This document shows, piece by piece, positions 16,318-33,232 of a DNA stretch of 64,000 nt; position 1 is the first letter of the stretch, and each line of letters starts with the position of its first letter. Position numbers and translations under genes: made by a program. This DNA is from Nostoc sp. DedSLP01 (GTDB lineage: Bacteria; Cyanobacteriota; Cyanobacteriia; Cyanobacteriales; Nostocaceae), in the NCBI GenBank assembly GCA_034530875.2, contig JAVRCJ020000021.1, positions 64,001 through 128,000 on the forward strand, in the 5' to 3' direction. Under the pieces are notes generated by a model, which did no database searches, was not told where the DNA came from, and saw only the letters and a program-made list of their open reading frames with translations.

Positions 16318-19300
16318 TTGACGAAAAAATTGTTTAAATTTTTAAACGAATTGTTACTTTTGGGATTAGCACTTGCGGCACTAACTCCTTTAATTTTTCA
16401 AGAAAGCCGCGTCATCGCCGAAATTACACCTGACAGCACCTTAGGAAATGAATCATCAATCGTAACCGAAGGGGTTGAAATTAAAGGGGGAATAGGTAAT
16501 CGCATTGATGGTGGTGCAGTCCGAGGAGCAAATCTATTTCACAGTTTTAGGGAATTTAGCATTGATGATGGGCAACGGGTTTACTTTTCTAACCCCACAG
16601 GAATAGAGAATATCCTCACGCGAGTTACAGGTAATAACCCCTCGAATATTTTGGGAACGCTGGGGGTTTTGGGTAATGCCAATCTGTTTTTTATTAACCC
16701 CAACGGCATCTTATTTGGTAAAAATGCAAGGTTAGATATTGCAGGTTCCTTTGTAGGAACAACAGCAAATGCTATTCAATTTGGGAATCAGGGTTTTTGG
16801 AACGCTTCAACCCCGGAAATTACCCCTTTGCTAACTGTAAATCCTTCAGCATTATTCTTCAATCAAATTCCCAGGGGAACTATCGAAACCAGAGCGATCG
16901 CACCTACCGGTTTAGATGCCTCAGGAGAGGAGACATTTGGTTTGCGGGTTGGCGATAATCGCAGTTTACTACTTTTGGGCAGTGACATCAACCTGAATGG
17001 AGGCAGCTTGAACGCCTTGGGGGGTAGGATTGATTTGGGTGGATTGGCAGCACCGGGAAGTGTGGAGTTGAAGTTTGCAGGTAACAATTTGAGTATGAGC
17101 TTCCCTGATGGCGTACCAAGAGCAGATGTTTCACTTAGCAATAATGCCAAGCTCAATGTTACAGCCGAAAATGGTGGTAGTATCGCGATCGCGGCTCGAA
17201 ATATCGACGTTGCAGGAGAAAGCATCATACAAGCCGGAATCGGCTTTGGCTTAGGAAATTTTAGCAATCAAGCTGGAGAAATTACCCTCAATGCCACTGA
17301 TTTAATTACATTAAGCCAGTTGAGTACAATTCAAAACACAGTTGAGCAAAATGCTACAGGTAATAGTGGTGATATTAAGGTCACCACAGGTTCATTTTCT
17401 ATTAGTGATGGCTCTCAAGTAATTGTTAGTACTCTGGGACAGGGAAATGCAGGTAATGTCACAATTCAAGCTCGTGACACGGTTACACTTGATGGACTAA
17501 ATAGTGAATATTACTCTACCAAAATAGTTAGCAATATTGCTCGAAAAGGTGTAGGTCAGGCAGGAAATATTAACATTCAAACCGGATCGCTTTCAATGAG
17601 GAATACTGCTTTATTAGATTCCGGTACTGCTGGCCAAGGAAGTGCAGGTAATATTACTATTCAAGCTCGTAAAGCAGTTTTATTAGATGGAAGTGACATA
17701 GCAAGCGAGGTATCAAGCCGTGCAATATTCGGTAAAGGAGGAAATATTGAAATTGAGGCAGATTCGCTTTCAGTTATCAATGGCTCTCAACTAAGTACTA
17801 GCAGCTATGGAAACGGCGATGCAGGCAATGTCACGATTCAAATTTATGGGGTAAATGGCGTTGCTTTTGATGGCGTTAGTAGTGAAGATGGATTTCCGAG
17901 TGGAGCATTCAGCACTATGTCTAACAATGGAGTAGGCAAAGGAGGAAATATCCAAATCGCGGCAGAGTCGCTGTTTGTGAGTAATGGCGCTCAACTACAG
18001 GTGGCGACAATTGGAAAAGGAGATGCAGGTACTATCACCATTAAAGCTCGCGATCGCATTTCTTTCAACGGTACTGCTAGTTATGGATTACCCAGTGGAG
18101 CTTTCAGTTCTGTGGAACCGGAAGCAGTAGGTAAGGGAGGAAACATTTATATTACTACAGGATCGCTGTCGGTTAGCAATGGTGCTGGGTTAAACTCCCA
18201 AACTCGTGGCATCGGAGATGCGGGGAATATTTCGATTCAAGCTCAAGATTGGGTTTTATTTGATGGAGTCAGTTTATTAGACTTCAGCAGTGGGGCATTT
18301 AGTACGGTAGCTTTGGGTGCCCAAGGTAAGGGGGGAGATATTGAGATTATTGCCAATTCGCTCTCAATTAGTAACCGCGCGCGTTTAAATGCTCAAACCG
18401 ACAGTATGGGTAAAGCAGGCAATATTCTAGTGACAGCAAATACTTTTGATGCTGCTAGTGGTGGAGAACTTCTCACATCAACAAGCAGTAGTAGTAATGC
18501 CGGAGATATTACTTTGAGAATACGCGATCGCCTCACTTTAACAGGCGATAGTACCGGAATTTTTGCCAATACAACTGCCAATGCTACTGGCAACAGTGGT
18601 AACATTTTCATCGACCCCAAAGTGATGATGATTCGCGATGCAGCTAAAATTGCTGTTGATAATCAAGGTACTGGTATCGGCGGTACTATTGATATTCAAG
18701 CCGGAAAATTAACTCTCGATAACCAAGCTGTAATTTCTGCGGAAACAGCGAGTAATACTGGTGGCGATATTCAACTCCAACTCACAGACTTGTTGCTATT
18801 AAGGCATAACAGTACCATCTCTACAACTGCGGGAACTACTCAAGCGGGTGGTAATGGAGGTAACATTACCATCAACTCTCCATTTATTGTTGCTGCGGCT
18901 TTGGAAAATAACGATATTACCGCCAATGCTTTTAGTGGTAATGGTGGCAGAGTTGATATTACTGCTCAAGGAATCTTTGGACTAATACCCCGTAGTCGTT
19001 CGGATCTAGAGAGACTATTGGTAACTAATGACCCCGAGCAATTAAATCCGCGATCGCTTCCTACAAGTGACCTCACTGCCATTTCCCAAGCCAATCCCTC
19101 ATTCAGCGAACAGGTAGTTATTAATACAGCAGATGTAGACCCCAGTAACGGACTCGTGAATTTGCCGACAAATATAGTAGATGCCTCCCAACTCATTGCC
19201 CAAACCTGTAGAACTGGTGGAGAAGCAACAGCCAATCAAAAAAGTGAATTTATAGTCACTGGACGCGGAGGTTTGCCGCCTAACCCCATTGAGCCACTTA

Positions 19301-19530
19301 GCAGCGATGCCATTTGGCAAGATTTACAAGCTCATGCTTTGCTCAATGAAAAGGTAAGCGGCTCCCAAGAAGAGGTAAATTTAATTTCAGAAACAGCGAA
19401 TGCGATCGCTGAAGCTCAAGGCTGGGTAACTAACCCTGATGGTACTATTACCCTGGTAGCTCAAGCTCCCACTGCTACCCCTCACAACTCTTCACTCACA
19501 CCTGTTAGTTGTCCGGTTGCCCAAAACTAA
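16318..19530 (+). CDS. Filamentous haemagglutinin N-terminal (TPS) domain exoprotein
   Basis: Signal peptide; NLFHSF..F, NILTRVTG, NLFFINPNGI; G.AGNI.I beta-helix repeats; C-terminal FIVTGRGGLP and EAQGW. Confidence 0.9.
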   Translation: MTKKLFKFLNELLLLGLALAALTPLIFQESRVIAEITPDSTLGNESSIVTEGVEIKGGIGNRIDGGAVRGANLFHSFREFSIDDGQRVYFSNPTGIENILTRVTGNNPSNILGTLGVLGNANLFFINPNGILFGKNARLDIAGSFVGTTANAIQFGNQGFWNASTPEITPLLTVNPSALFFNQIPRGTIETRAIAPTGLDASGEETFGLRVGDNRSLLLLGSDINLNGGSLNALGGRIDLGGLAAPGSVELKFAGNNLSMSFPDGVPRADVSLSNNAKLNVTAENGGSIAIAARNIDVAGESIIQAGIGFGLGNFSNQAGEITLNATDLITLSQLSTIQNTVEQNATGNSGDIKVTTGSFSISDGSQVIVSTLGQGNAGNVTIQARDTVTLDGLNSEYYSTKIVSNIARKGVGQAGNINIQTGSLSMRNTALLDSGTAGQGSAGNITIQARKAVLLDGSDIASEVSSRAIFGKGGNIEIEADSLSVINGSQLSTSSYGNGDAGNVTIQIYGVNGVAFDGVSSEDGFPSGAFSTMSNNGVGKGGNIQIAAESLFVSNGAQLQVATIGKGDAGTITIKARDRISFNGTASYGLPSGAFSSVEPEAVGKGGNIYITTGSLSVSNGAGLNSQTRGIGDAGNISIQAQDWVLFDGVSLLDFSSGAFSTVALGAQGKGGDIEIIANSLSISNRARLNAQTDSMGKAGNILVTANTFDAASGGELLTSTSSSSNAGDITLRIRDRLTLTGDSTGIFANTTANATGNSGNIFIDPKVMMIRDAAKIAVDNQGTGIGGTIDIQAGKLTLDNQAVISAETASNTGGDIQLQLTDLLLLRHNSTISTTAGTTQAGGNGGNITINSPFIVAAALENNDITANAFSGNGGRVDITAQGIFGLIPRSRSDLERLLVTNDPEQLNPRSLPTSDLTAISQANPSFSEQVVINTADVDPSNGLVNLPTNIVDASQLIAQTCRTGGEATANQKSEFIVTGRGGLPPNPIEPLSSDAIWQDLQAHALLNEKVSGSQEEVNLISETANAIAEAQGWVTNPDGTITLVAQAPTATPHNSSLTPVSCPVAQN

Positions 19531-22109
19531 TGTTGCACTCTCAGATGGCAAAAAAACAGCCGAAATTTTGGCGTCAAGTTCTAGCTTTTGTGCTTTGTGT
19601 GCTGTTGGGGATGAGTCTAACTCTGGTGCTGGAATTGAGACAAGTCATAGCTGCTGCCGTTCAACCTCTGGCTGTCAAAACACAATATTTATCGAACTCA
19701 AATTTAATTCAACAAGGTAGAGAACTCTACCAAGCGCAACGCTATGCTGAAGCGATAAATATTTGGCAGTTGGCACTCAAAGCAGAAAAAAATCCATCTT
19801 CTCAAGCTATGGTGCTAAATTATCTCTCTTTGGCTTATCAGCAATTGGGACAGTGGCAGCAAGCAACCCAGACAATTAGCTCTAGCTTGAATTTAATTCA
19901 AAACTCCCAGACAACACCGCAAACAAAACTCATCCTTGCCCAAGCACTCAACACTCAAGGAAGTTTGCAATTAGCCGAAGGTAAAACTGAACAAGCTCTT
20001 AATTCTTGGCAACAAGCAACTAACATTTATACCGTAGCAGGTTATACACAAGGCAGAATTGGCAGTTTAATTAATCAAGCTCAAGCCCAACAAGCTCTAG
20101 GGCTTTACCTGCAAGCTCGTAAAACCCTAGCAGAAGTAGAACGAACGCTAGAGAATCAACCAGACGAACAGTTAAAAACTACAGAATTACGTAGCCTGGG
20201 CAACGTTCTCAAATCTGTGGGTGCTTTTGCTGATTCTCGCAGAGTTTTGCAGCAAAGTTTGCAGTTGCTACAAAATAGCGCGAGTAAATCACCACAAGAA
20301 TTGAGTGCTACTTTACTCAGCTTGGGTAATACAGCTTATGCCCAAGGCGATAAAGAGGCAGCATTAGCATACTACGAACAAGCTGCAAATATTGCGCCAG
20401 CAAGCACTATAACTCAGATTCAAGCTCAAATTAATCAACTTCAATTATTAATAGCAACTGGACAAACAAAAAAAGCCGAGAATCTTTCCCTAGAACTCCA
20501 GTCAAAGTTTAATAATGTTTCTCCCAGTCGCTCAACAATTTACTCTCGCATCAACCTTGCGAAAAGTTTAGTGAAACTGGGAACTCAAGAAAACACTGCA
20601 TCTGCTAAACTACTGGCAACAGCAATTCAAGAAGCTGAAAATTTAAGCGATCGCCAAGCACAGTCTTATGCTTTGGGTTATCTAGGCGGACTCTACGAAC
20701 AAACCGAGCAGTGGTCAAATGCTCAAGATTTAACCCAGCAGGCTTTGCAAATAGCTCAAGCCATTAATGCGCCACATATTGCTTATCAATGGCAATGGCA
20801 ATTAGGACGGATTTTAAAAGCCCAAGGTGCAATCAAGCAAGCAACATCAGCTTATGAAGTCGCCTTTACAACATTAAAATCTCTGCGCAGCGATTTAGTG
20901 GCGATTAACAGTGACATTCAATTTTCCTTCCGGGAAGCTGTAGAGCCTGTATATCGCGAATACGTACAATTACTTTTAAATCAAGATCCTAGCCAGGAGC
21001 AACTAAAACAAGCGCGTCAAGTAATTGAATCGCTACAATTAGCAGAACTTGACAACTTTTTTCGTTCAGCTTGTCTCCAAGGACAGATAGTACCGATTGA
21101 CCAAATTCAACAGTCGGCAGCAGCAGTCATTTATCCCATCATTTTGCCAGACCGACTAGAGGTAATTCTCAGTTTACCTCAGCAAGGACTACGCCACTAT
21201 GCCACGAAAATAAGCCAAGCTGAAGTAGAAGAAGTCATACAGCAACTCAGAGAAAATTTAGAAAAACCCTTCACAACTCCTGAGGGAAAATTATTATCTA
21301 CAAAAGTTTATGACTGGTTAATTCGCCCTGTGGAAGCAGAACTAGCTGAAAATGAGGTGAAAACATTGGTTTTTGTCTTAGATGGTGCATTGCGGAACGT
21401 GGCGATCGCAGCTTTGTATGATGGTAATAATTATTTGGTAGAAAAATACAGCATAGCCCTAACACCCGGCTTAGAGCTATTAGGGCCGCGTCCTTTGCGT
21501 CAAAGCAAGCTAAAAACTTTGGCTGCTGGACTCACAGAAGCACGACATGGATTTACTTCCTTACCAAATGTCAGCGACGAATTAAAAACAATTGAGTCGG
21601 AAGTCCCTAGCGAAGTTCTCCTGAATCAGACATTTACTAGTTCAGCGCTACGAAAACTCATTGACTCAGTACCGTTTTCTGTGGTGCACCTAGCAACTCA
21701 CGGTCAATTTAGTTCCAATGCCGATGAAACCTTTGTGTTGGCTTGGGATAAACCAATTAAACTCAACGAATTAAAAGACTTGCTTCGCAGCAGAGAGCAA
21801 ACTACACCTGAGCCAATTGAATTACTCGTTCTTAGTGCTTGCGAAACTGCCGATGGAGACAAACGCGCCGCTTTAGGGCTGGCTGGTATGGCAATTCAAG
21901 CAGGCGCACGCAGTACCTTAGCCTCTCTTTGGAGTTTAGATGATGAATCTGGCGCGCGTCTAATTAGCCAATTTTATAAAGAGCTAGCGACTAAGCAAGT
22001 GACAAAGGCAGAAGCTTTGCGACAAGCGCAACTCTCACTGTTAAAAGACCCAGATTATCGCCATCCGGTGCATTGGGCGGCTTACGTTTTGCTGGGAAAT
22101 TGGCTGTAG
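19530..22109 (+). CDS. TPR-CHAT domain protein (caspase-like protease)
   Basis: N-terminal hydrophobic segment, TPR helices, VHLATHG and LVLSAC catalytic motifs, HPVHWAAY end; ATG overlaps upstream stop (TAATG). Confidence 0.92.
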   Translation: MLHSQMAKKQPKFWRQVLAFVLCVLLGMSLTLVLELRQVIAAAVQPLAVKTQYLSNSNLIQQGRELYQAQRYAEAINIWQLALKAEKNPSSQAMVLNYLSLAYQQLGQWQQATQTISSSLNLIQNSQTTPQTKLILAQALNTQGSLQLAEGKTEQALNSWQQATNIYTVAGYTQGRIGSLINQAQAQQALGLYLQARKTLAEVERTLENQPDEQLKTTELRSLGNVLKSVGAFADSRRVLQQSLQLLQNSASKSPQELSATLLSLGNTAYAQGDKEAALAYYEQAANIAPASTITQIQAQINQLQLLIATGQTKKAENLSLELQSKFNNVSPSRSTIYSRINLAKSLVKLGTQENTASAKLLATAIQEAENLSDRQAQSYALGYLGGLYEQTEQWSNAQDLTQQALQIAQAINAPHIAYQWQWQLGRILKAQGAIKQATSAYEVAFTTLKSLRSDLVAINSDIQFSFREAVEPVYREYVQLLLNQDPSQEQLKQARQVIESLQLAELDNFFRSACLQGQIVPIDQIQQSAAAVIYPIILPDRLEVILSLPQQGLRHYATKISQAEVEEVIQQLRENLEKPFTTPEGKLLSTKVYDWLIRPVEAELAENEVKTLVFVLDGALRNVAIAALYDGNNYLVEKYSIALTPGLELLGPRPLRQSKLKTLAAGLTEARHGFTSLPNVSDELKTIESEVPSEVLLNQTFTSSALRKLIDSVPFSVVHLATHGQFSSNADETFVLAWDKPIKLNELKDLLRSREQTTPEPIELLVLSACETADGDKRAALGLAGMAIQAGARSTLASLWSLDDESGARLISQFYKELATKQVTKAEALRQAQLSLLKDPDYRHPVHWAAYVLLGNWL

Positions 22110-22295
22110 TAAAAATAATTTTTTATATCACGCAGAGTCGCACAGGCAAGGCAGCGACGGGTACGCAGGGGGTTTCCCCCATGAGCGACTGCCGCGCAAA
22201 GAAGAGAACGCAAAGAAGGACTTTTGCAAGAGGTCTAATGAGCGTGGCGCGTCTGAATCCTCCACGCTCAAGATTGCTGAATTCTGTATTCTTCT

Positions 22296-22688
22296 TTATG
22301 TCGTCTTTGTAGCGCCGGGTTTTGCATCTGCGTTTGATTTTAACCGCGTGATGAGAGCTTTACGAACGCGATCGCTTTTCCTTACCGCACCTGCTAGTTC
22401 GTATTCCCGGCTATCTTTGCCATACTTTGACGCTACACCACTAACTAAGCGTTCTGAAGTCTCGCGCATGTTCTTTTCCAGGGCTTCTATTTTCCCCTTT
22501 GCCGAATCGAGGGTGTTTAGTAACTGATTATATTGCTTGAGTTCGTTACGTAGTTCCGCAGTTAACTCGTTCAAATACTGCAAACTGACAGAATCACCAA
22601 AATCGAGGCTAGGATCGATTGATTGCAACCCGATTGTCTGCTGTTCTATTTTTTCGAGTACGGAAGAAGTTTTTTTGGGGCGTGGCAT
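22296..22688 (-). CDS. Hypothetical coiled-coil protein (YGKDSREYELAG motif)
   Basis: 130 aa from ATG 22688 (MPRPKK); basic N- and C-termini and a central heptad pattern; resembles a hypothetical family recalled from cyanobacteria. Confidence 0.8.
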   Translation of the reverse strand: MPRPKKTSSVLEKIEQQTIGLQSIDPSLDFGDSVSLQYLNELTAELRNELKQYNQLLNTLDSAKGKIEALEKNMRETSERLVSGVASKYGKDSREYELAGAVRKSDRVRKALITRLKSNADAKPGATKTT

Positions 22689-22832
22689 CAATACATACCT
22701 TTTGCTTAACTTTATTCTTCTAGCGTCTCTCAAAAATATAAGTAGTTGGTTCAGTGAAAATAGCCAAAATCAAGCATTTTTTCCCAAAAAAATTTAATGA
22801 ATAGTTCAGTAATTGCCGTAAAATAATTTACT

Positions 22833-23052
22833 TTGTTAACCAAAGTGCTTGGTTTGTTAAACAAAGTGTTTGTCTTGTTAACGAAAGTGCTTGGTTTATT
22901 AAACAAAGTGCTTGCCTTGTTAACCAAAGTGCTTAGTTTATTAAACAAAGTGTTTGTCTTGTTAACGAAAGTGCTTGGTTTGTTAAACAAAGTGCTTGCC
23001 TTGTTAATCAAAGTGCTTAGTTTATTAACCAAAGTGCTTGCCTTGTTAAACA
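22833..23052. repeat. Tandem array of about 10.5 x 21 bp (consensus TTGTTAAMCAAAGTGCTTGSY)
   Basis: Ten full units plus a partial unit read directly; ends at HIP1 site 23053-23060. Confidence 0.97.
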
Positions 23053-23146
23053 GCGATCGCACATATTATCTGTTAGCTTAAAATTACGGCATTGCTTTTA
23101 TTACACCGTTTTTCATCTATTTGAACCACTTGAACCACAATTTTCG

Positions 23147-23358
23147 GTAGGGGCTTTACAGCGTTCAAACTCTTGCCCCACAATCGTTTTACCCCACCCC
23201 CAACCCCTCCCCTTGGCAAGGGGAGGGGCGATTTTGGCTTTAGACAAAATCGGGGTGGGGTAACGCGGATTTTGATGGTAAGTGAGATAGCTGAATATCA
23301 CATCTTTACAAGGGTTTCGCGTTAAGTTGACACCAATGCACAGCTGTAAAGCCCCTAC
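23147..23358 (+). mobile_element. Family B MITE (left TIR missing) nested inside a GTAGGGGCTTTACAGC palindrome
   Basis: 16-bp perfect inverted arms at 23147-23162 and 23343-23358 enclose a sequence similar to 15740-15919. Confidence 0.75.
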
Positions 23359-23489
23359 AACGTGGTCTACTCAACTGAAAACTGCTGTAGGGACACAAAA
23401 CCAGTTTTTCTCTTGCCCTCTGCCTCCCTCGCGAAGCGAGATAAACTCCAGTAAATGGGTTGCTAAAAAATTTTTTTGGCTTTGTTGTG

Positions 23490-23528
23490 ATTTGAGTGCA
23501 TAAACCTCAAAAGTGAAACGTGTAACTC
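23490..23528 (+). promoter_or_regulatory. Conserved promoter-like motif, copy 1 (TGCATAAA-N14-CGTGTAAC)
   Basis: 36/39 identical to 26005-26043; ends 63 nt before ATG 23592; preceded by an A6T7 tract. Confidence 0.7.
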
Positions 23529-23591
23529 AGCAAGAAGTTCAAAGGCTAACACCAGACTTCATTACACACACAACACGAGGTTTATAGGAAT

Positions 23592-25709
23592 ATGGGAATT
23601 TATACTGGCGACAACGGCAATAATATCTTTCTGGGAACTAATGGTGAATCTTGGACACTCAACGGACAAGATGGCAATGACAATCTAACTGGTGCAGATC
23701 GAGACGACCTAATTACTGGTGGAGCTGGTAACGACAATTTGCTTGGTGCTGCTGGTAATGATTATCTTTATGGTAATGCTGGCTATGACTACTTGTATGG
23801 TAACGGCGGCGATGACAAGTTAATTGACGAAGATGGTTATGTAGATGGTGGTGCAGGCATTGATACGCTAGTAGCTAACTACGGTGCCTACGGAAGTCCC
23901 AGTCTTGGTGTAATCGTAGGATCTGATAGTATCACCAATATTTACCCAGGATTCTTAGGACTCAAGTTCACTAATATTGAAAAATTTCTCATCATAGGCT
24001 CACAATTGCTAGATACCCTGCGTGGTGGTGCTAATAGTGATAGCCTGTATGGTGAAGGTGGTAACGATCGAATTGAAGGTGGCGCTGGTCTTGATTATCT
24101 TTATGGTGGCGCTGGTGATGATACCGTAATTGATACAGATGGTTCTGTAGATGGTGGTGCAGGTATTGACACATTAATAGCCAACTACAGTGTGTTGAAT
24201 AATGGTGCTGGTGTAGAAATGAAACCAAGCGCTATTGTTAACCGGGCGAATAATAATCCACTACTCAATTATACTAATTTTGAGAAATTTAACGTTACAG
24301 GCACACAATACGCAGATATTCTGCGTGGTGGTGCTAGCAGTGATATCCTTAAAGGCGGTGCTGGTAAAGATCAAATTGAGGGTGGCGCTGGCTTTGATTA
24401 TCTTTATGGTGAGGCTGGGGATGATACCTTAATCGATACAGATGGTTCTGTAGATGGTGGTGCAGATGTTGACACACTAGTAGCCAACTACGCTGATTTG
24501 AATAGTGGTGCTGGCGTACACGTAGGATATTTGGGACAAAGTGCCATTTTCAGCCGGCAAACAGGATTATCACTACTCAATTACACTAGTATTGAACAAT
24601 TTAACATCACAGGTACACAATACGCAGATGTCTTAAGCGGCGGTGCTAAGGGTGATACCCTCAAAGGCGGTGCTGGTAACGATCAAATTGAGGGTGGCGC
24701 TGGCTATGATTATCTTTATGGTGAAGCTGGGGATGATACTATTATTGATTCAGATGGTCTTGGTTATGTAGATGGTGGTGCAGGTTTTGACACATTAATA
24801 GCTGACTACACTAATTTAAATAATGGTGCTGGTGTAGACGTGAGAGAAAATGGCATCTTTAGCCGCCTGAATAATAATCCACTACTTAGTTACACTGGTA
24901 TTGAAAAACTCGATATCACAGGCACACAATACGCAGACACTCTCCGTGGTGGTGCTGGCAATGATTTCCTCTACGGCGCTGCTGGCAACGATAGCCTCAA
25001 TGGCGGTGCTGGCAATGATATCCTCAAAGGCGGTACTGGCAATGATACCCTCAACGGCGGTAGTGGCTATGATGTTGTTAACTATGAAGGAAATTATACA
25101 GACTATGCAATCTCTTTTCTGAGCAATGGCGATTTACAAGTAATTGATAAGGTCACTACTAATGGTAACGAAGGTATCGATATTCTCAGTGGTGTAGAAT
25201 TCATTACTGCACAAGACGGAAATTTTGCAGTCCTTACAGGTGGTACAGGCAATGATGTGCTAACGGTGGTAGCACCAAACTATTGGGCTTTCCTCTTCGG
25301 TGGTGACGGAGCCGATAGCCTAACTGGTGGAACTGGCTACGATAACCTCACTGGCGGCAATGGTAATGATACTTTAGTAGGTGGCAATGGTAATGATACT
25401 CTAGTAGGCGGTGCTGGCAACGATATTCTTAATGGTGGTGCTGGCAATGATATTCTTACTGGCGGTTTAGGTGCAGATAAATTTGTGTTTAACTCGAAGG
25501 TAGAAGGCTTAGACATCATCAAAGACTTTAGTATGGTTGAAGGTGACAAGATTCAGATTTCTAAAGCTGGTTTTGGTGGTATCGCTGACTTCAAGAATTT
25601 CAGCTACAACGATGCTACTGGTGCTTTGTTGTTCCAAGGAACTCAATTCGCCACCATTGAGAATAAGCCTGCTAATTTTGCAATCAGTACAGATATTCAG
25701 CTTGTTTAA
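23592..25709 (+). CDS. RTX-type calcium-binding repeat protein
   Basis: Many GGxGxDxLx nonapeptides; four larger internal repeats; C-terminal GADKFVF...DIIKDF; no Sec signal. Confidence 0.92.
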   Translation: MGIYTGDNGNNIFLGTNGESWTLNGQDGNDNLTGADRDDLITGGAGNDNLLGAAGNDYLYGNAGYDYLYGNGGDDKLIDEDGYVDGGAGIDTLVANYGAYGSPSLGVIVGSDSITNIYPGFLGLKFTNIEKFLIIGSQLLDTLRGGANSDSLYGEGGNDRIEGGAGLDYLYGGAGDDTVIDTDGSVDGGAGIDTLIANYSVLNNGAGVEMKPSAIVNRANNNPLLNYTNFEKFNVTGTQYADILRGGASSDILKGGAGKDQIEGGAGFDYLYGEAGDDTLIDTDGSVDGGADVDTLVANYADLNSGAGVHVGYLGQSAIFSRQTGLSLLNYTSIEQFNITGTQYADVLSGGAKGDTLKGGAGNDQIEGGAGYDYLYGEAGDDTIIDSDGLGYVDGGAGFDTLIADYTNLNNGAGVDVRENGIFSRLNNNPLLSYTGIEKLDITGTQYADTLRGGAGNDFLYGAAGNDSLNGGAGNDILKGGTGNDTLNGGSGYDVVNYEGNYTDYAISFLSNGDLQVIDKVTTNGNEGIDILSGVEFITAQDGNFAVLTGGTGNDVLTVVAPNYWAFLFGGDGADSLTGGTGYDNLTGGNGNDTLVGGNGNDTLVGGAGNDILNGGAGNDILTGGLGADKFVFNSKVEGLDIIKDFSMVEGDKIQISKAGFGGIADFKNFSYNDATGALLFQGTQFATIENKPANFAISTDIQLV

Positions 25710-25752
25710 AATTCTCTACAGATTAGTCTAAAAATTTAATCATATCAATTAT

Positions 25753-25782
25753 CAGCCCTTACTTTGGTGAAGGGCTGGTTTT
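25753..25782 (+). terminator. Putative intrinsic terminator
   Basis: CAGCCCTT...AAGGGCTG hairpin followed by a T run, downstream of the RTX gene. Confidence 0.6.
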
Positions 25783-25913
25783 TACATTTAGGGAAAAGAA
25801 GCTGGCAGATAAGGAACACAGAGGCAGGAAGCTTTTTTATCATCTCCCTATCCCCTTCTCCCTATTCCTAGTAGACATCTCCATAAATTAACTCTACGTT
25901 ACCCAAAACCCAT

Positions 25914-25942
25914 GTAGAGACGTAGCAATGCTACGTCTCTAC
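25914..25942. repeat. REP-like palindrome (GTAGAGACG family)
   Basis: Perfect hairpin with compensatory changes relative to the 15976 copy. Confidence 0.85.
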
Positions 25943-26004
25943 ATTGATTTTCACTCCTATGTCTAATAGACATCTCCAAAAAAAAAATTTTTCGGTTCAT
26001 TGCT

Positions 26005-26043
26005 ATTTGAGTGCATAAAGTTCAAAAGTCAAACGTGTAACTC
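26005..26043 (+). promoter_or_regulatory. Conserved promoter-like motif, copy 2
   Basis: 36/39 identical to 23490-23528; preceded by an A/T tract. Confidence 0.7.
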
Positions 26044-26283
26044 TGTGGAGGGTAAAGTAAATAATCCCAACCAACAAACTGGAGGTTGGAGTCATCGAAA
26101 CTACTTTAAATACTCTCCACCAAAGTTGAAGCTAGGGAGTTATTATTTCTGCTCCATGCAGATGTGTATTGGTAGTAAATCATCAGCACTATGAACAATT
26201 TAACTACTAATTTTGCCTAGCTCAACAGCAAGTCAGTTTATCAACAATTATACCGTTAACTACTCAACACAGAAACCTAAAAC

Positions 26284-26988
26284 ATGACTACTAATTACAC
26301 TTCTAAGTCTGCTTTTTCATCTCAACAATCTACTCGTAAGGAAAAATTTATGTCCCGCAAACCATTAAGTTTAATTGCAACACTGATTGGTGTTAGCGTA
26401 CCAGTATTTTCATTAAATTTTGCTCAACCTGCAATGGCACAAGATTACACTAATTGCAGAAAAGTTGATGGCGTAAATGTATGTGCCCAAAAAACATTTG
26501 CTGGTTACGAACTTTATGCCAGTAATCCTTCTCAACCAAGCCAAAATCCCAACGCTTTAGGTCAATACCAATTGTTTTGGGATGGAGTGCAAGTTGGTAT
26601 GGAACCGAGTTGGACACTGCAACAAGCGATCGCTAATTTAGAATTTAATAAGAAAAGCTATCCTAACAAGAAAGTTGAAGGCTTATTTAACGGTCAAAAA
26701 GTCGGCTACGAATTACTCTGGGATGGCGTGCGAGTAGGGTTTGAACCCGGTTGGACATTGCAACAAGCGATCGCTAATTTAGAATTTAATAAGAAAAGCT
26801 ATCCCAACAAGAAAGTTGAAGGCTTATTTAACGGTCAAAAAGTCGGCTACGAATTACTCTGGGATGGCGTGCGAGTAGGGTTTGAGCCAGGTTGGACACT
26901 GCAACAAGCGATCGCTAATTTAGAATTTAATAAGCAAAGCTATCCCAATAAGAAAGTTGAAGGCTTATTCAACGGTAAACAACTGTAA
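26284..26988 (+). CDS. Secreted protein with three 47-aa tandem repeats
   Basis: Signal peptide ending PAMA-Q (start may be ATG 26350); 141-bp near-identical DNA repeats from 26566 to 26985. Confidence 0.85.
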   Translation: MTTNYTSKSAFSSQQSTRKEKFMSRKPLSLIATLIGVSVPVFSLNFAQPAMAQDYTNCRKVDGVNVCAQKTFAGYELYASNPSQPSQNPNALGQYQLFWDGVQVGMEPSWTLQQAIANLEFNKKSYPNKKVEGLFNGQKVGYELLWDGVRVGFEPGWTLQQAIANLEFNKKSYPNKKVEGLFNGQKVGYELLWDGVRVGFEPGWTLQQAIANLEFNKQSYPNKKVEGLFNGKQL

Positions 26989-27013
26989 TCAAAATTGATG
27001 CGATAATCAATAA

Positions 27014-27047
27014 AAAACAGCCCTAGTAAAATTACTAGGGCTGTTTT
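27014..27047. terminator. Putative bidirectional intrinsic terminator
   Basis: AAAACAGCCCTAGTAA / TTACTAGGGCTGTTTT inverted repeat between convergent genes. Confidence 0.7.
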
Positions 27048-27296
27048 AATGTACTGAAAAAATTGCCTTATATAGCAAGTAACTATGGACTGGAGAGAAA
27101 ATAAATGTAGCGACTGTCTTGAAAGTCAAGACAGTCGCTACACCTGCTAATGATAAGTACTCAACTGGACATCATATAAAACTCATATTTGAATTCTGAA
27201 AAAAATCAGTACACCCAAACAAGACTTCTTTCCTACTCCCCACTCCCTACTCCCTGTCTACGCAAGTAAATTCACAAATCAAACCAGATTCCTATA

Positions 27297-28079
27297 TTAT
27301 TTAGCAACACAACAAGATGCGATCGCATCTGTACCAACCTGAACTAAATTAACTTGTTTGAGTAGCTCAATCCAAGCTGATGCAATTTTTGGATCTTTGT
27401 CTTTGGTATTTTGTAAACTTTCTCCTAAACTTGTTAAAGCATCAAACCAAACACCATGTTGTGCAAAAAAACTTGCTTTTGCTAATGGTGTTTTAGCTGC
27501 TGCAAGTTGTTGTTGCCATGATGGGCTGATAGCTACTTGTGTCATTGAACCTTGCACGTAAACAGCAGATGACGCCTTATCAGGATCGCAATAAATCGAA
27601 AAAGTCCAACGATAAGATTTACCAGCAATTAAGGGTTTTGTAGGTTGTACGGGTATGCTAAAAATTCCCGATCGCGTTTCTGGTGGATTAAATTTTGTAT
27701 GATAAACGTAATTATCTGCTTCGTCTTGAATTACAAATTCTATAGGGAGTTTGGGTGTTAATTTATCAGGGACAAAAAACCAAAATGTCGGGGTTTGAGA
27801 TGCCGATTGTCCCCATACTAAATCTTTATTTCCTGTCTTAGTTATAGGTACTAAAGCTGTCAGCGTTTCATACTGCTTACAGGAACCACGACTACCTCCA
27901 CCTCTACGCCTACCTGTGGGTTCTCCTGGCTTTTCCTGCGCTCTTGGTGCAATATATGTGATTTTGCCTGTAGGTGTTAGGGTTTGAGCCTGTACATACC
28001 AATTTCCAGATGGGTTAAAAATACTCAAGGTAAGCGCAGATATCAGGGTGGTAGTATGAAACCAAAGTACCTTTTTCAT
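27297..28079 (-). CDS. DUF928 domain protein (exported)
   Basis: Signal peptide; GGGSRG.C, LTALVP, PTFWFFVP, Y.WTFSI.C, G.WFDAL motifs. Confidence 0.9.
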   Translation of the reverse strand: MKKVLWFHTTTLISALTLSIFNPSGNWYVQAQTLTPTGKITYIAPRAQEKPGEPTGRRRGGGSRGSCKQYETLTALVPITKTGNKDLVWGQSASQTPTFWFFVPDKLTPKLPIEFVIQDEADNYVYHTKFNPPETRSGIFSIPVQPTKPLIAGKSYRWTFSIYCDPDKASSAVYVQGSMTQVAISPSWQQQLAAAKTPLAKASFFAQHGVWFDALTSLGESLQNTKDKDPKIASAWIELLKQVNLVQVGTDAIASCCVAK

Positions 28080-28170
28080 AATAGAAATTAATTAGCGATC
28101 GCCAAAGTAACTTATTAGGATTTTTAATTTTTGAGGATTAACACCTAATTTATTACTACACTTCACTTGC

Positions 28171-30510
28171 CTATAATTTCTGGAATTTTTTGCTGATAAA
28201 GATAAATATAGTACTACTCAGTAGCAAAGAAATCATTGGTGGTACTAAGGGTATCCAGCCGCCTTGAGTTAATAGAATTAAGCAAAATCCAAATAACGTA
28301 ACTGATGCTGCGATTACAGAAATACTGATGTAAGCTATTTTGCGAAGATACCAAGCTAGTAGGCTACCTGTCAAAGACCATACCCAAACCCAGCAAATAT
28401 CAGCCCATTGCCTCCAAACCCATAACATGGGTCTTTGGTCTAAAGCAGCACTGAGTATTTCACTGACCATTTGTGCCTGAATTATTACGCCTGGAATGAT
28501 ATCTGAAGGGTTTTTTCCATCTGGTGTATACCAGTAATCGCTACTACTGTTACTGGTGACGCCAATCAGAATAATCCGGTTTTTCAGGGCATTTGGATTA
28601 ACTTGTCCGTTCAAGACTTGGCTGAGGGTGACTTGGGGTGCGATCGCTTGCACGGAGGGCGAAAAACGGTAATTTAGTAAAATCTGACTACCTTGGGCAT
28701 CTATGGACTGATAACCGCCAGCCCGATTTTGTAACTGTGGGAAAGTTTTATTTCCCAGTTGCAAATCCCAATTTTCGGTAAATTTGGCTGTAATTCCCTG
28801 TTTTTTCAAGTAGAGAAATGCTAGCTGCACGCTAAAGGCAGAAGCAGCAGTACAAGTTGACGAAATTGGGTTGGGAGTCATCGCCAACAAATGACGGCGC
28901 AGTACGCTATCGTTGTCTTCCACAAAATCGCTAAAACCTAACCGTGTTTCTGGTATTTCCGGCGGGGGTGCAATGCCTGTGGGGTCGTATTTGGGATCGG
29001 CACGTTTACAAATTGCAAAAAAGCGATCGCTTTTTTGCATCCGCTTGGCTAGTTCTGGGTAGTTGGCGCTGACTGGAAAATCTCGGTATATATCTAAACC
29101 TATAGCTGCTGGCTGGTATTGTTCCAGTTTAGTTAGTAAGAGATTGAAATACTTGTCGGATAACGAACCTTGCCGCGGTTCTTGTCCTTGCGCTTGAATA
29201 TCCTGGTCGGTGACAGTTATTACCAAAAGCCGCGAGTCCGGTTGTTCTTTTGGTCGCAGTTGCATTAATTGGTCGAATGCATCTAATTCTAGGGCTTGCA
29301 GCCCACCGAATAACCGTATGAATACGACAATTAAACTCACGCTGAAGCTATTAAAAAAAACTAGCGGTAACTGCCTCAAATTCGGACGCGGCAGATATAA
29401 ACCCAACCTCTGACCGCAGATATCCTGCCAAGTGGGGGAAATTTCTGCTGGGTTTTGGCAAATCACAGGTAGCCAAGTAGCGCAGGGAAAATCATGTTCT
29501 AGAGATTGTAATCTTTCTCTGGCTTCCCTAACGGCTGCATATAAAGTTTTACCCTGGGAAAAAAGTGCCAAAAAGTGCTTCAAAAATTCCTGTGCTACCC
29601 CGTCTGGTACGGGTTCGCGCATGACAATTACCTGGGGTAAATGCAAATCGGCTAAATCTTGCGCTAATCCCAAACCATCGCAAGAGTTAAAAATTGCTAA
29701 TTGCAAACCTTGAGCGATCGCCTTTTGTAAACCATACTTTAATTGGTCAATAGTTAAACTTTCCCCAGAATTGAGCATCATTCGCCCTTTGCCTTGGCTG
29801 GAACTATGCCCCGCAAAAAAAAGAATGTCCCAGCCTGACTTCCATAATTGTTCTGTGAGTTGGGAACGGTTGGGTTCGACTAAAAACTTGAGTTCCGTAT
29901 GAGGTAATTGTCGCAGTAAATTTTGGTCTTTTTCGATATCGATACCGTGGCGATCGCCTAAAATTGCTAAAATCCTGACTTTACCTTTACTCTTTTGAGG
30001 ATTTGTCTTCACAGAACGCGTATATTCTGGCGGACTCAGGGCAATTTCAGCTTGTGGATAATCGCTAAAAAAATGCCACAGACACCAAGGAAGCTTTAAA
30101 ACCTGCTCAGATTCAGCAGTAATTATGCAGCGGATTTCTTCTTTTGGTGAAAGTTGAGTGCGTAGTTTGCGGTCAATATTGAGAAACAGCGAACTATTTA
30201 GCCATGTATTTAGACTGTCTTGTAATTCTTGGCAGAGGTTGTCAAACTCTGCTTGGGAAATATGCGTAACATCTTCTTCATCAATTTCAAAGTCTGCAAT
30301 ATTGCCACTGCGCCAACCCAAACTAGCATACAAAGCTGTATACATTTGTTGCCAACGTTGATAAAGATACTCCAATTGTGGTGCAGCAGGCAATCCACCT
30401 GTAAACTGCATGGGAGTAGGAGTATCCGTTTGCCAAAGTTGAGCTGTGACCGTGGGAAAGCCTTGGCGTAAGTTTCCTTTTCCTAAGTTAAGGACGATTT
30501 GTTTACTCAT
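28171..30510 (-). CDS. CHAT (HetF-type) plus CHASE2 domain membrane protein
   Basis: FFAGHS and AIFNSC dyad motifs, TM helix, CHASE2 motifs (IGLDIYRD, GV.IQAQMVS), three C-terminal TMs. Confidence 0.9.
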   Translation of the reverse strand: MSKQIVLNLGKGNLRQGFPTVTAQLWQTDTPTPMQFTGGLPAAPQLEYLYQRWQQMYTALYASLGWRSGNIADFEIDEEDVTHISQAEFDNLCQELQDSLNTWLNSSLFLNIDRKLRTQLSPKEEIRCIITAESEQVLKLPWCLWHFFSDYPQAEIALSPPEYTRSVKTNPQKSKGKVRILAILGDRHGIDIEKDQNLLRQLPHTELKFLVEPNRSQLTEQLWKSGWDILFFAGHSSSQGKGRMMLNSGESLTIDQLKYGLQKAIAQGLQLAIFNSCDGLGLAQDLADLHLPQVIVMREPVPDGVAQEFLKHFLALFSQGKTLYAAVREARERLQSLEHDFPCATWLPVICQNPAEISPTWQDICGQRLGLYLPRPNLRQLPLVFFNSFSVSLIVVFIRLFGGLQALELDAFDQLMQLRPKEQPDSRLLVITVTDQDIQAQGQEPRQGSLSDKYFNLLLTKLEQYQPAAIGLDIYRDFPVSANYPELAKRMQKSDRFFAICKRADPKYDPTGIAPPPEIPETRLGFSDFVEDNDSVLRRHLLAMTPNPISSTCTAASAFSVQLAFLYLKKQGITAKFTENWDLQLGNKTFPQLQNRAGGYQSIDAQGSQILLNYRFSPSVQAIAPQVTLSQVLNGQVNPNALKNRIILIGVTSNSSSDYWYTPDGKNPSDIIPGVIIQAQMVSEILSAALDQRPMLWVWRQWADICWVWVWSLTGSLLAWYLRKIAYISISVIAASVTLFGFCLILLTQGGWIPLVPPMISLLLSSTIFIFISKKFQKL

Positions 30511-30519
30511 AATTTATGT

Positions 30520-30678
30520 CACGCAGAGACGCTCCAGACGCAGAGAGTAAGAGTTGAGGAGAGTTTATTTTTGAGTTTCTGAGCAACGTCAAAACTCTTT
30601 ATCCTCTTTGCGCCTCTCTCTTGAAAAGTTCAGATCGCCGGAAGCCGGCGCTCCGACTTTTCGCTGCGTCTCTGCGTG
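30520..30678. repeat. Composite inverted-repeat element (CACGCAGAGACGC...GCGTCTCTGCGTG)
   Basis: 13-bp terminal inverted arms; related left end near 22129. Confidence 0.65.
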
Positions 30679-30691
30679 AAACAATACCCAT

Positions 30692-31837
30692 TTAACTTTC
30701 AAACTCCTCCATAAAATTGAAATCATCTAAAACAACCTGAAGACTAAACCGTGTATTTTGAGGACATTTAAATCGTTTGAGTTGAATTGAATTATCTGTT
30801 TCCCTTGCTTGCACTGACTGCACAATTTCTCCGGAAGCAGAAATCAATGCCAAACTAATATTTCTAGGGAGATAGAAATTGCGTTCTTTAGGATACAGTT
30901 GAGCGCGGATTCCTACTCTACCATCTATTTCTGCCGTCAATGTCAACATTAACACTACAGCTTGATTGTTATTTGGTAACTCAATTTCCCTAACTCGTTG
31001 GATTGACTGCTCAGCTGTATCGTTAACCTGACGGAAGCTAAAGGCAAAATCTGGTTGCGTACCCAAGTAACTTTCTATTGTTTGCCAGCTATCTGCAACT
31101 ATATTTTGCAACCACTGACGCAAGTTAACAAGTGCTGGCTTCTGTGTAGTAAATCTTTGCGGCCAGTCTTCCCTATTTAATAAGGCTCCCCAAATTTCAA
31201 AAGGCAATTCCAAGCGAGGATTAGTAATTGTTGGACTTGTTAATCTTTGCCAGAGATTTTCTACTTGAGTAGCTGATAAAACAGGTAAAGGAGCCAGAGC
31301 TGTTTGTGTTTGTTCTTCAGGATATAGTTGACGTACTACCCAAAGCACATTTAAATCCTCAATCATTTGAGTAGCATCTAATGAGTAAGTCCGTTCTTGG
31401 TAATCGTAGCTACCTTGATTTTTTAATTGTTCGTGGGTAGTATAGCCCCAAATTCTCATCCACTCACCATCGGGATTAACTTGTACTGCTAAATAATAAT
31501 CTCCTACCCATCGAGGAATATCTATCCATTCTTGGGGTACAGAAAATTCTCTAGTTTCTAAACTTTTATCTGGAATTAAAATTAAACGTTTTGTATCGAT
31601 ATTTATAGCAGTGCCGTTGACCAATTCCCAACTGATTGGCAATGTGTCAATAGTAGCTTCTGGTACGTATTCTGCTTGCAACCAAGGCAAAAAAGTACTG
31701 AGGCATACTTGATTGAGAAAAACATTCCAACGGCTACGGGGACTAACGCTAGACTGGCTTTGCTGCCAAGATTGATTTTGAACTTCAGGAGATACCTCCA
31801 ACCACAGCTGAGTCGGGGGAACACAAAATGATGACAT
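30692..31837 (-). CDS. DUF1822 family protein
   Basis: WELVNGTAI, VPQEWIDIP.W.GDYYLAVQV, WGYTTH..LK, NLRQWL motifs. Confidence 0.88.
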   Translation of the reverse strand: MSSFCVPPTQLWLEVSPEVQNQSWQQSQSSVSPRSRWNVFLNQVCLSTFLPWLQAEYVPEATIDTLPISWELVNGTAINIDTKRLILIPDKSLETREFSVPQEWIDIPRWVGDYYLAVQVNPDGEWMRIWGYTTHEQLKNQGSYDYQERTYSLDATQMIEDLNVLWVVRQLYPEEQTQTALAPLPVLSATQVENLWQRLTSPTITNPRLELPFEIWGALLNREDWPQRFTTQKPALVNLRQWLQNIVADSWQTIESYLGTQPDFAFSFRQVNDTAEQSIQRVREIELPNNNQAVVLMLTLTAEIDGRVGIRAQLYPKERNFYLPRNISLALISASGEIVQSVQARETDNSIQLKRFKCPQNTRFSLQVVLDDFNFMEEFES

Positions 31838-31839
31838 AA

Positions 31840-33057
31840 CTACTGCTCCTTTGAGGGCTGAGGTTGCAAATTACTGAAATAATTTTGTAACCATTCCTCT
31901 AATACTGCACTAATATGTTTAACCACGTTGGAAGTCGGAGAAATATGCATTGTTTCTTGACTCCATTTGGCGATCGCTAGTAATAAAGATTCTCTCGTTT
32001 TCGCCAATTGCCGCGATACTTGATATTGCTGGATTTGCTGTTGTTTGGCAATTTGTTGTTGAGTCAGACCTTGTTGATAGTACAATTGCAGCAATTCTTG
32101 CGATTGTGGAGGCAACTTTCCCAAGGTAGTAATTAATAAATTCTGGATTTCTTGTTGTTGATTTTTTTGAGTTTCCGCTTCTTCTTTAGCGATTAAATCT
32201 GCCAGTAAAGATTCATTTTGAGTAGTATCTGGTAAATCATCTTGTAATTCACTATCAGCTTGACCTGTTTTCGGCGCGTTGAGTGAAGAAACCACAGGAT
32301 ATAAATAAGAACGTGCGTGTTTTGCGGATAACAGCAGCCATTTTTCTAGAGTTTGGGCGTTGGATTCTGTGCTTGGTGGGTTAAGTTGCGTTAAGCGGTC
32401 GCGGTTGTAGAGTTGAGCAATTGCTTCCCAGGTATCTTGGTTTGGTCTTTGCAACTTCCGCACACCTGGCGATTTCCCCAAAATGTAACCATCGACAAAA
32501 CATTTCCAAGCTAACAAGTAACAAGCAATAGTTTCATCTGTTAGCCCAGCATTTTGCAAAGATTCCTGTAGTCGTTTGCGGCTTAACTTCAGTAATAATG
32601 CCCAATCGTTACAAAAATCTATTTCTTGTTTTTGCCGCAAAGCATCACGAATTACATTGCCAAAAGCCACATTGCTGTAGCTTTTGAGACTGGCTTTTTG
32701 GTCAGGATCGCAGGCTTTGAGGATTTTTGGTAGTTCTGCGATCGCTATTTGAAAACAATCAGACAAGGTACACTGGACGCTAGCAATTTGAGGAATCGTC
32801 CTTGTTGCTGACCAATAACAAGTTTCTTGCAAATAAGCTGATAGATGTGCCTCAGCTAGAGAGTTAGGCTGATTTTGCCAATTTTTATGCCAGTAAATTG
32901 CCCAAAAATTTTCTGAGTTTTTCGTTTCTGATATCTGTAGCAAGCGATTTTGGATACTGCGCCGTAGTTTGGCATCATATACCCAACAGTTAAAGCGATC
33001 GGCTTCAAATTGAATAAAGGTTGAAAATATTTCTAAGATTTTCTGGCGAGGACGCAT
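31840..33057 (-). CDS. Atypical sigma-70 family RNA polymerase sigma factor (cyanobacterial group 3/4-like)
   Basis: HLSAYLQE.CY, region-2-like LKSYSNVAFGNVIRDALRQ, region-4 HTH (LLQLYYQQGLTQQQIA...VSRQL); ATG 33057. Confidence 0.85.
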   Translation of the reverse strand: MRPRQKILEIFSTFIQFEADRFNCWVYDAKLRRSIQNRLLQISETKNSENFWAIYWHKNWQNQPNSLAEAHLSAYLQETCYWSATRTIPQIASVQCTLSDCFQIAIAELPKILKACDPDQKASLKSYSNVAFGNVIRDALRQKQEIDFCNDWALLLKLSRKRLQESLQNAGLTDETIACYLLAWKCFVDGYILGKSPGVRKLQRPNQDTWEAIAQLYNRDRLTQLNPPSTESNAQTLEKWLLLSAKHARSYLYPVVSSLNAPKTGQADSELQDDLPDTTQNESLLADLIAKEEAETQKNQQQEIQNLLITTLGKLPPQSQELLQLYYQQGLTQQQIAKQQQIQQYQVSRQLAKTRESLLLAIAKWSQETMHISPTSNVVKHISAVLEEWLQNYFSNLQPQPSKEQ

Positions 33058-33232
33058 GAATTCAAAAGGATAAACCTTCAAAAACAAGTATACTTGTTAC
33101 TTTCGCTCGTGAGTTCGCTAGGCCATCTCATGTCCAGTTGCAGAGGTTCGTGAAGACTGACACGGAGAGTATGAATCCAAATGTAGAGACGTTGCAATGC
33201 AACGTCTCTCCGATTTACCCGTGAAAAATGCC

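Follow-up and report, generated by a model that had tools for sequence, protein, structure and literature searches.

In Bacillus subtilis, the sigma factors σW, σM, and σX, of the extracytoplasmic function (ECF) type, read promoters of the form TG(A/T)AAC-N16/17-CG(T/A)(A/C), and these small proteins are usually autoregulated from a promoter that lies upstream of the gene, not inside its coding tail. The main text of a purely computational study describes EACC2-caspase gene neighborhoods that contain an "ECF sigma factor" and DUF1822, for which proteolytic activation followed by a transcriptional step was proposed (Kaur, Iyer, Burroughs, and Aravind, 2021, PMC8195603). HetZ of heterocyst-forming cyanobacteria is reported in the main text of another study to be an ECF-type sigma factor with insertions that has its anti-sigma factor under its own control (Hu et al., 2026, PMC13342950). 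In the Csx29 system of type III-E CRISPR, a CHAT protease frees the ECF factor CASP-σ from its inhibitor Csx30 (Strecker et al., 2022, PMC10028731). Here, we describe a locus in a 64,000-nucleotide (nt) stretch of Nostoc sp. DedSLP01 DNA (the window; assembly GCA_034530875.2, contig JAVRCJ020000021.1, positions 64,001 to 128,000 of the forward strand), in which two copies of a 39-base motif lie near a cassette of sigma-like, DUF1822, and caspase-like CHASE2 genes. Our analyses make it likely that the motif is a promoter, with a TGCATA −35 box, a 16-nt spacer, and a CGTG −10 box, read by RNA polymerase carrying the sigma-like protein encoded at 31840 to 33057; the predicted targets are both flanking genes and the DUF1822, CHAT-CHASE2, and DUF928 genes.

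The two copies lie at 23490 to 23528 and 26005 to 26043, both on the plus strand, and the sequence bears out what an earlier note on this DNA said of them: they agree at 36 of 39 positions (3 of 39 differ), each follows an A-tract/T-tract, and each points toward a plus-strand gene downstream. The first of these genes encodes 705 amino acids and the second 234. The elements of these two predicted promoters and their predicted targets are as follows.

23465 to 23477, plus strand: A-tract/T-tract before promoter 1, a candidate UP-element-like sequence (from the sequence and a T-rich tract in nonredundant logos)
23497 to 23502, plus strand: predicted −35 box of promoter 1, TGCATA (sequence, geometry)
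23519 to 23522, plus strand: predicted −10 box of promoter 1, CGTG, with a predicted +1 at 23532 (A) by the geometry of a Nostoc PCC 7120 start site
23592 to 25709, plus strand: predicted target 1, a 705-amino-acid RTX/hemolysin-type calcium-binding repeat protein (Pfam, PF00353)
25978 to 25992, plus strand: A-tract/T-tract before promoter 2 (sequence)
26012 to 26017, plus strand: predicted −35 box of promoter 2, TGCATA (sequence, geometry)
26034 to 26037, plus strand: predicted −10 box of promoter 2, CGTG, with a predicted +1 at 26047 (G)
26284 to 26988, plus strand: predicted target 2, a 234-amino-acid repeat protein with no Pfam family above cutoff and, by eye, a signal-peptide-like stretch after its second Met (26350)

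The two downstream genes are unrelated, as the note had stated: one encodes an RTX protein and the other matches no Pfam family. Its description of both products as secreted stands as a prediction only, with RTX repeats in the first and a signal-peptide-like N terminus in the second. The motif is asymmetric and thus not palindromic, and the palindromic repeats of the window form separate families. When the whole 8.57-Mb genome was scanned, we found these 2 copies and no third, even at 9 mismatches of the 36 specified bases, so the motif is not a mobile or high-copy-number repeat. The window contains 2 matches, compared with 0 in 100 dinucleotide shuffles, and in a position-weight scan of the genome the two copies scored 43.9 and 38.7 bits, with the next best site at 18.8 bits. 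A σ70 consensus scan of 22000 to 33300 returned 29 sites, versus 24.2 ± 4.9 in shuffled sequence, and none at the motif. The identity between the copies is limited to roughly 30 nt upstream and 32 nt downstream of the first base of TGCATA (about 60 nt in total) and ends about 10 nt past the CGTG box; the near-identical spacer of the window copies probably reflects local copying of this ~60-bp promoter piece, by which the second copy would have originated. The note's −35/−10 reading of the motif held up, with the conserved parts narrowed from full 8-mers to TGCATA and CGTG, 16 nt apart. An UP element upstream of the boxes, which the note also proposed, is plausible from the T-rich upstream tract in the logos.

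On relaxing the search to the hexamer, we found a third copy, which the earlier note had not listed and which scores below 15 bits with the same position-weight matrix. It lies within the last codons of the sigma gene and is aimed at the genes that follow.

31924 to 31949, minus strand: promoter 3 in the sigma coding tail, with TGCATA at 31949 to 31944, CGTG at 31927 to 31924, and a predicted +1 at 31914 (A)
31840 to 33057, minus strand: 405-amino-acid sigma-70-family protein with sigma-2 (~50 to 145) and sigma-4 (~299 to 367) separated by a long insertion (hidden Markov model, structural model, fold)
30692 to 31837, minus strand: DUF1822 protein, the putative anti-sigma partner, directly after the sigma gene in the loci compared (Pfam)
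28171 to 30510, minus strand: CHAT (caspase-like) plus CHASE2 membrane protein, a predicted sensor protease (Pfam; architecture as in the main text of PMC8195603)
27297 to 28079, minus strand: DUF928 protein, the last gene of the operon predicted to be under the internal promoter (Pfam)

The core of promoter 3 spans sigma codons 370 to 378, and its predicted +1 is 77 nt before the DUF1822 start. TGCATA-N16-CGTG has three matches in the genome, all of them in this 8.5-kb locus, and no motif copy precedes the sigma, TPS, or TPR-CHAT genes of the window.

We compared this locus with its relatives, using 101 distinct sigma loci (nine identical sequences were removed from 110 before the tree was made), of which 40 belong to clade A, the CGTG-type clade of the window, and 61 do not. 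The internal copy is exact in 34 of the 40 clade A sigma genes. Codon 371 (His) is CAT in 90 of 90 genes, while the other His codons divide into 362 CAT and 239 CAC (60% CAT), and for Leu at codon 370, 68 of 69 genes use CTG or TTG. In clade A, 39 of 40 genes have C as the third base of codon 377, with four different amino acids encoded there, and 39 of 40 have GTG at codon 378, where 7 of 7 clade C genes have GTA. After thinning to 43 sequences of less than 70% identity, CAT was still found in 35 of 35 (background, 0.66; P = 5e-7), ranking first of 141 columns. By these codon counts, the internal copy is held at the DNA level by synonymous codon choice. Elsewhere in the sigma gene, GCG ATC at codons 105 and 106 (window ~32740 to 32745, minus strand) is also synonymously conserved across the family and matches part of the cyanobacterial HIP1 octamer.

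The spacing between the boxes is fixed. At the clade A loci, CGTG follows after exactly 14 nt at 30 of 68 TGCATAA[A/C] sites and at none of them with spacers of 8 to 13 or 15 to 21 nt; with the hexamer TGCATA alone, it follows at a spacer of 16 nt at 64 of 305 sites and at any other spacer from 12 to 20 nt at 4. At the 61 other loci, none of the 123 TGCATAA[A/C] sites has CGTG at 14 nt; instead, 35 have CCTA at 14 nt and 11 have CGTAnA at 13 nt. The genome of the window, with the sigma loci set aside, has CGTG at 14 nt at 0 of 693 TGCATAA[A/C] sites. The conserved core is TGCATA-N16-CGTG, in which the upstream box is constant and the downstream box is CGTG, CCTA, or CGTA according to the sigma clade; in nonredundant logos, the two boxes persist and most of the spacer signal disappears. 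Box type goes with position in the sigma tree, and no locus mixes types at its external sites. Paralogous cassettes have the same upstream box at the same distance from a different downstream box, and the genome of the window has four paralogues, in the window and on contigs C69, C7, and C62. In five loci that were examined afterwards (four with a CGTA-type and one with a CCTA-type sigma by nearest neighbor), the box was of the expected type in all five.

The clade A external sites are placed as promoters would be. They precede 10 gene families, with a readable downstream open reading frame at 36 of 41, and some are on contigs without the sigma gene. Many of these reading frames encode an RTX protein or have, by eye, a signal-peptide-like start. 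Most of the sites (27 of 31) are intergenic with a co-oriented gene within 400 nt, and 35 of 36 have a purine at the predicted +1 when its distance from the −10 box is set by the PCC 7120 start. The promoter was probably placed before other genes in relatives through captures related to the ~60-bp copying, as judged from sequence.

Several relatives show individual arrangements of these sites. One locus (L014, 10856 to 11110, genome G022) has lost its RTX gene, which leaves the promoter joined to the final codons of that gene; an intact promoter copy lies on another contig of this genome, before an unrelated gene of 348 amino acids. In L164 and L175 (genomes G494 and G463), the promoter lies on the minus strand from 1408, on a contig other than that of the sigma gene, before a protein of at least 469 amino acids without a Pfam match. 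In one genome (G470, contig C5, 4737544 versus 7279685), 2.5 Mb of a single contig separate the promoter-bearing TPR-CHAT/RTX block from the sigma cassette, which may reflect rearrangement or scaffold order. Four congeners (L180, L182, L184, and L186) carry CGTA-type cassettes with one to four predicted promoters per locus before short peptide-like genes, and in two of the four an exporter gene comes next. The upstream box of type B sites overlaps the sigma start codon in 11 of 39 cases, which was weighed as a possible confounder of the box counts, and no overlap is seen in the other 28 of 39 type B or in 31 of 31 type A sites. In these 11 (contig C69 of the window's own genome, 13162, and 10 others), it is the upstream box of a divergent promoter that overlaps the start codon, on the opposite strand; TGCAT complements ATGCA, and an occupied type B box could repress sigma expression.

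A listed transcription start in Nostoc PCC 7120 fits this geometry. This strain has a homologue of the sigma gene, alr7311, on plasmid alpha, which groups with the CGTA clade, and the alr7311 locus includes the PPC-domain gene all7317. The start of all7317 is listed as gTSS_350902r in the supplement of PMC10287535. It is preceded by a T-tract and then by TGCATA, which begins at −34 and is separated by 15 nt from CGTA at −13 to −10; positions −12 to −7 contain no TANNNT hexamer. This box pattern is missing from the 12 other listed starts that were inspected in the 50-kb region. On the 408-kb plasmid, the pattern has 4 matches (reversed control, 1): this start, one inside alr7311, and two elsewhere. 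The table, which gives one start per unit, has no row at 3406xx for the internal alr7311 site and none for the two other matches. In the same data, nitrogen removal induces all7317 (log2 change of 1.8 and 2.8) and alr7311-alr7312 (1.2 and 1.4). The start-to-box distance of this site is what places the predicted window starts at 23532, 26047, and 31914. The A/T tract upstream of the divergent all7317 promoter also holds the listed start of the CHAT gene alr7318 (NC_003276.1, 350902 to 350953, L149). A Nodularia supplement looked at for RNA evidence contained neither TGCATAAA nor DUF1822.

Across genomes, the motif tracks the sigma gene. The 39-mer, at up to 3 mismatches, is present in 7 of 101 relatives, exactly those with a 93 to 100% identical sigma protein, and sigma homologues occur in 60 of the 101. 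Among 127 genomes of the genus, 26 match TGCATAAA-N14-CGTGTA; with 13 near-identical matches left out for reasons given below, the remaining 13 genomes have intergenic-type matches and are the same 13 of 127 that have the sigma orthologue. In 401 genomes of the order, a stricter pattern was found in 9 and its reversed control in 1. Four of these 9 have a sigma protein of at least 64% identity, and the other 5 are of one genus; in three of those, the same cassette encodes a 44 to 45% identical sigma protein, and the motif copies are either adjacent or on other contigs; the sigma check covered these three of the five. Three genomes with 70 to 78% identical sigma proteins missed the exact pattern, of which two carry variants and one, on a 13-kb contig, has the internal site only. 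The protein family itself is widespread, with 1423 proteins at E ≤ 1e-5 among 8000 scored.

We also found differences in the protein that accompany those in the DNA. The region 4 helix reads QYxVSR in all three TGCATA clades and QPTVSR, a Tyr-to-Pro change, in one clade without TGCATA promoters. The internal site of the QPTVSR clade is (T/A)GAATA-N16-CC[A/T]A, and when TGAATA-N16/17-CC[A/T]A was then sought outside the gene, it was found before neighboring genes in 6 of the first 6 QPTVSR loci. Of 188 TGAATA sites in QPTVSR loci, internal sites included, 15 and 9 have CC[A/T]A at spacers of 16 and 17 nt, respectively, and no spacer stands out in 96 other loci. At residue 134, the CGTG, CCTA, and CGTA clades have Asn, Ser, and Arg, respectively. 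By the profile alignments, sigma residues 345 and 134 would correspond to E585 and Q437 of Escherichia coli σ70, which read −33 and −12. Protein and DNA appear to change together, but over few independent evolutionary events. Another candidate for the upstream box of the QPTVSR clade, GCACAAA, was unsupported, and TGAATA, taken from the internal site, replaced it. The genome of the window has a QPTVSR paralogue locus of its own (contig C62, 8907 to 10750), in which 72-bp repeats stand in tandem, eight copies in 1.8 kb. Each holds a TGAATA-N17-type predicted promoter, and the repeats precede three related short peptide-like genes and an ABC exporter.

The protein encoded at 31840 to 33057 has the parts expected of a sigma factor. 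It scored 109.5 bits against TIGR02937, for which the cutoff is 42.9, which assigns it a sigma-2 domain; Pfam found region 4 only (PF04545/PF08281), with no match to Sigma70_r2. A 107-sequence profile compared with solved sigma factors matched region 4 (residues 301 to 361) and, more weakly, region 2 (87 to 149). An AlphaFold2 model had a mean predicted local distance difference test score of 79.8 and a predicted template modeling score of 0.43, and a wide fold search with it listed sigma factors in 24 of the first 25 rows, including RpoS region 1.2-2 (Z, 10.2; root mean square deviation, 2.4; 96 residues aligned) and SigE region 4 (Z, 8.1; root mean square deviation, 1.4; 69 residues aligned). 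About 150 residues with four helices are inserted between sigma-2 and sigma-4. ECF (group 4) sigma factors have a short linker at this place, so the protein is predicted to work like an ECF sigma factor but not as a canonical one.

We rejected membership of the HetZ family (NF037963), since three other genes of the genome, but not this one, are hit by the HetZ model, the relation by profile has a probability of 0.9% with no significant sequence relation, and the boxes TGCATA/CGTG do not match the HetZ promoter TCCGGA/TGnA. A HetZ cluster appeared at a feature score of 0.90 in an Atlas search, a weak lead only, and the wide fold search listed no HetZ structure, which excludes nothing. The same genome encodes HetZ, a second HetZ-like protein, and a third distant relative (E = 3e-22) at C6 273173, C24 110437, and C9 99574.

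The same observations bear on other explanations of the motif. It is unlikely that the protein is an ordinary activator, or that a partner such as DUF1822 binds the boxes, with a housekeeping sigma factor starting transcription. An ordinary ECF sigma factor is half as large as this protein, Pfam recognizes only its region 4, and co-occurrence cannot part the protein from DUF1822, whose gene always comes next; against this, profile and fold searches find a sigma-2 fold, the boxes stand at −34 and −13 of a measured start that lacks TANNNT at −12 to −7, and the upstream box changes along with the region 4 recognition helix. We give very little credence to a promoter of some other genome-wide sigma factor, of the SigG, SigJ, SigF, or HetZ type, whose link to the cassette would be shared ancestry. 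ECF-like geometry is common and close-kin co-occurrence can come from one inherited island, but this locus holds all three of the matches that the 8.6-Mb genome has to the full core with a 16-nt spacer; 94 of the 101 relatives searched lack the 39-mer; copies in front of unrelated genes on other contigs turn up in genomes that have this cassette; and the HetZ promoter, TCCGGA/TGnA in the main text of PMC13342950, is different. That upstream DNA was recently duplicated and the copies have no regulation in common is just as improbable: the copies do share spacer and flank bases over ~60 nt, and one unlinked copy shares 5′-leader sequence with the RTX copy, yet the two boxes and the distance between them are all that is conserved across families, the spacer having drifted, and this layout is found again at paralogous cassettes, where the boxes differ, and, under synonymous constraint, inside the sigma gene. 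Duplication explains the origin of the second copy, not its conservation.

The assignment to the sigma protein of 31840 to 33057, which the earlier note called most likely, is thus supported by fixed spacing with a variable spacer, clade-matched boxes, co-occurrence, and one measured start site at a homologous promoter. Several points weigh against it. The box types were defined after viewing the data, and the kin compared are not independent, so co-occurrence alone could reflect inheritance of an island. The sigma tree is a quick tree with long-branch warnings, on which the −35 change is a single event and the −10 changes are two or three. External sites were found in only 22 of the 40 clade A loci, within ~10 kb, and six further QPTVSR loci had no TGAATA-CC[A/T]A site over 9 to 12 kb, so that 6 of 12 such loci have one. 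TGCATA-CGTG at other spacer lengths has 1 to 8 scattered genome matches each, and on its own the short core therefore lacks specificity. The internal copy is not intact everywhere, because in the 49-locus B group its downstream box is mixed (CTA, 22; GTA, 18), often without the leading C. Of the 26 genus matches, 13 share one near-identical sequence, and the 8 of these that were examined lie antisense inside one conserved coding gene, which is why all 13 were left out of the 13/13 count. The fold Z values of 8 to 11 are middling for a helical protein by the tool's own note. Finally, gTSS_350902r is one site in another subfamily and organism, linked to alr7311 by sequence and locus only.

If the motif is the promoter of this sigma factor, region 4 would read the upstream box and region 2 the downstream box. 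By analogy with CASP-σ, Csx30, and Csx29, DUF1822 may hold the sigma factor inactive until the CHASE2-CHAT receptor frees it by proteolysis after an outside signal. The freed factor, with core polymerase, would transcribe the RTX gene and the 234-amino-acid gene from the intergenic promoters and DUF1822, CHAT-CHASE2, and DUF928 from the internal one. The internal promoter would restock inhibitor and receptor without more sigma factor, forming a negative feedback loop, and paralogous cassettes in one genome would be insulated by their different boxes. A broader proposal is somewhat favored over its denial: that this is a large cyanobacterial sigma family with its own promoter in the last codons, which drives the inhibitor and receptor protease in feedback, and that single-residue changes in regions 4.2 and 2.4 gave several mutually insulated sigma-promoter pairs within one genome, each with a small regulon of exported proteins or peptides.

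The minus-strand run of sigma, DUF1822, CHAT-CHASE2, and DUF928 genes converges on the two plus-strand targets, with TPS and TPR-CHAT genes upstream, and the adjacent sigma, DUF1822, and caspase-CHASE2 genes have the arrangement of the EACC2-caspase/ECF sigma/DUF1822 neighborhood. Both catalytic motifs of a CHAT protease, His and Cys, are kept in the CHASE2 protein (residues 231 and 274), a predicted protease, and ~190 residues lie N terminal to its CHAT match, where an EACC2 domain would be sought. The remaining features are as follows.

25753 to 25783, plus strand: terminator-like hairpin and T run after target 1 (fold, −16.6 kcal/mol over 45 nt)
27014 to 27047, no strand assigned: bidirectional terminator-like hairpin between target 2 and DUF928 (terminator scan, fold)
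16318 to 22109, plus strand: TPS-domain and TPR-CHAT genes, conserved neighbors of the cassette (Pfam, relatives' loci)

The hairpin after target 1 was seen in the fold calculation and not listed by a simple terminator scan; with it in place, target 2 would need its own promoter. Other genes of the window were also noted. A gene for 145 amino acids (22296 to 23062, minus strand) has seven further tblastn matches in the genome and is preceded by an open reading frame of 7-residue (21-bp) repeats, with a similar pair in the relative locus L029. The gene at 36557 to 37909 (minus strand) has HHH_6 and OB-fold domains and is presumably the C-terminal half of a split DnaE plus a short intein piece. 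A Gly/Ser/Thr-rich repeat gene at 44947 to 45856 has frames open on both strands.

The sigma/DUF1822/caspase-CHASE2 cassette is widespread and has no experimentally tested function in the literature searched. With a promoter defined, the cassette could be studied in a straightforward reporter assay, and its outputs can be named; most are proteins and peptides predicted to be exported. Nostoc PCC 7120 offers a tractable example on its alpha plasmid (alr7311-alr7312/all7310/all7317), and a published E. coli system makes use of Anabaena polymerase (PMC13342950). Because the promoter is kept in the sigma coding tail, the recognition sequence of any family member could be read from its gene. The family would also offer nature's own set of changes in sigma-promoter specificity and might supply orthogonal switches for engineering cyanobacteria.

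We found no description of the cassette promoter in the literature searched, which did not extend to most subscription papers or to the supplements of PMC13342950 and PMC11119718; DUF1822 turned up there in two papers and alr7311 once, as an unclassified sigma factor. A domain census lists alr7311 among "SigJ.1" unclassified sigma-70 units and, in the part covered, gives no promoter or regulon (Gevin, Latifi, and Talla, 2024, PMC11119718). The locus shares with the neighborhoods in the main text of PMC8195603 a sigma factor, DUF1822, and a caspase-like protease fused to CHASE2. The targets, the internal promoter, and the clade-specific code described here set it apart from that account, the main text of which does not contain the word "promoter." CASP-σ has three sites within its own locus (PMC10028731), and there are three copies here too; its trigger is CRISPR RNA recognition, whereas here the protease is fused to a membrane CHASE2 sensor and the predicted inhibitor is DUF1822, which we liken to Csx30 by role. 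The B. subtilis ECF promoters likewise have two short boxes ~16 nt apart and a CGT-type −10 box, with a different −35 box. From our comparison, HetZ is the best functional precedent. As described in the main text of PMC13342950, σHetZ is also a cyanobacterial ECF-type sigma factor of ~400 amino acids with insertions that reads two boxes 16 to 17 nt apart, and it activates the promoter of a co-transcribed inhibitor, PatU3, in parallel with the predicted internal promoter here. It differs in reading TCCGGA/TGnA at 546 sites genome-wide, compared with three local sites here, and in having no caspase-like receptor. We conclude that the motif is a real and probably functional ECF-like promoter of a known cassette, and that what is most original in it is the copy embedded in coding sequence and the readable specificity code.

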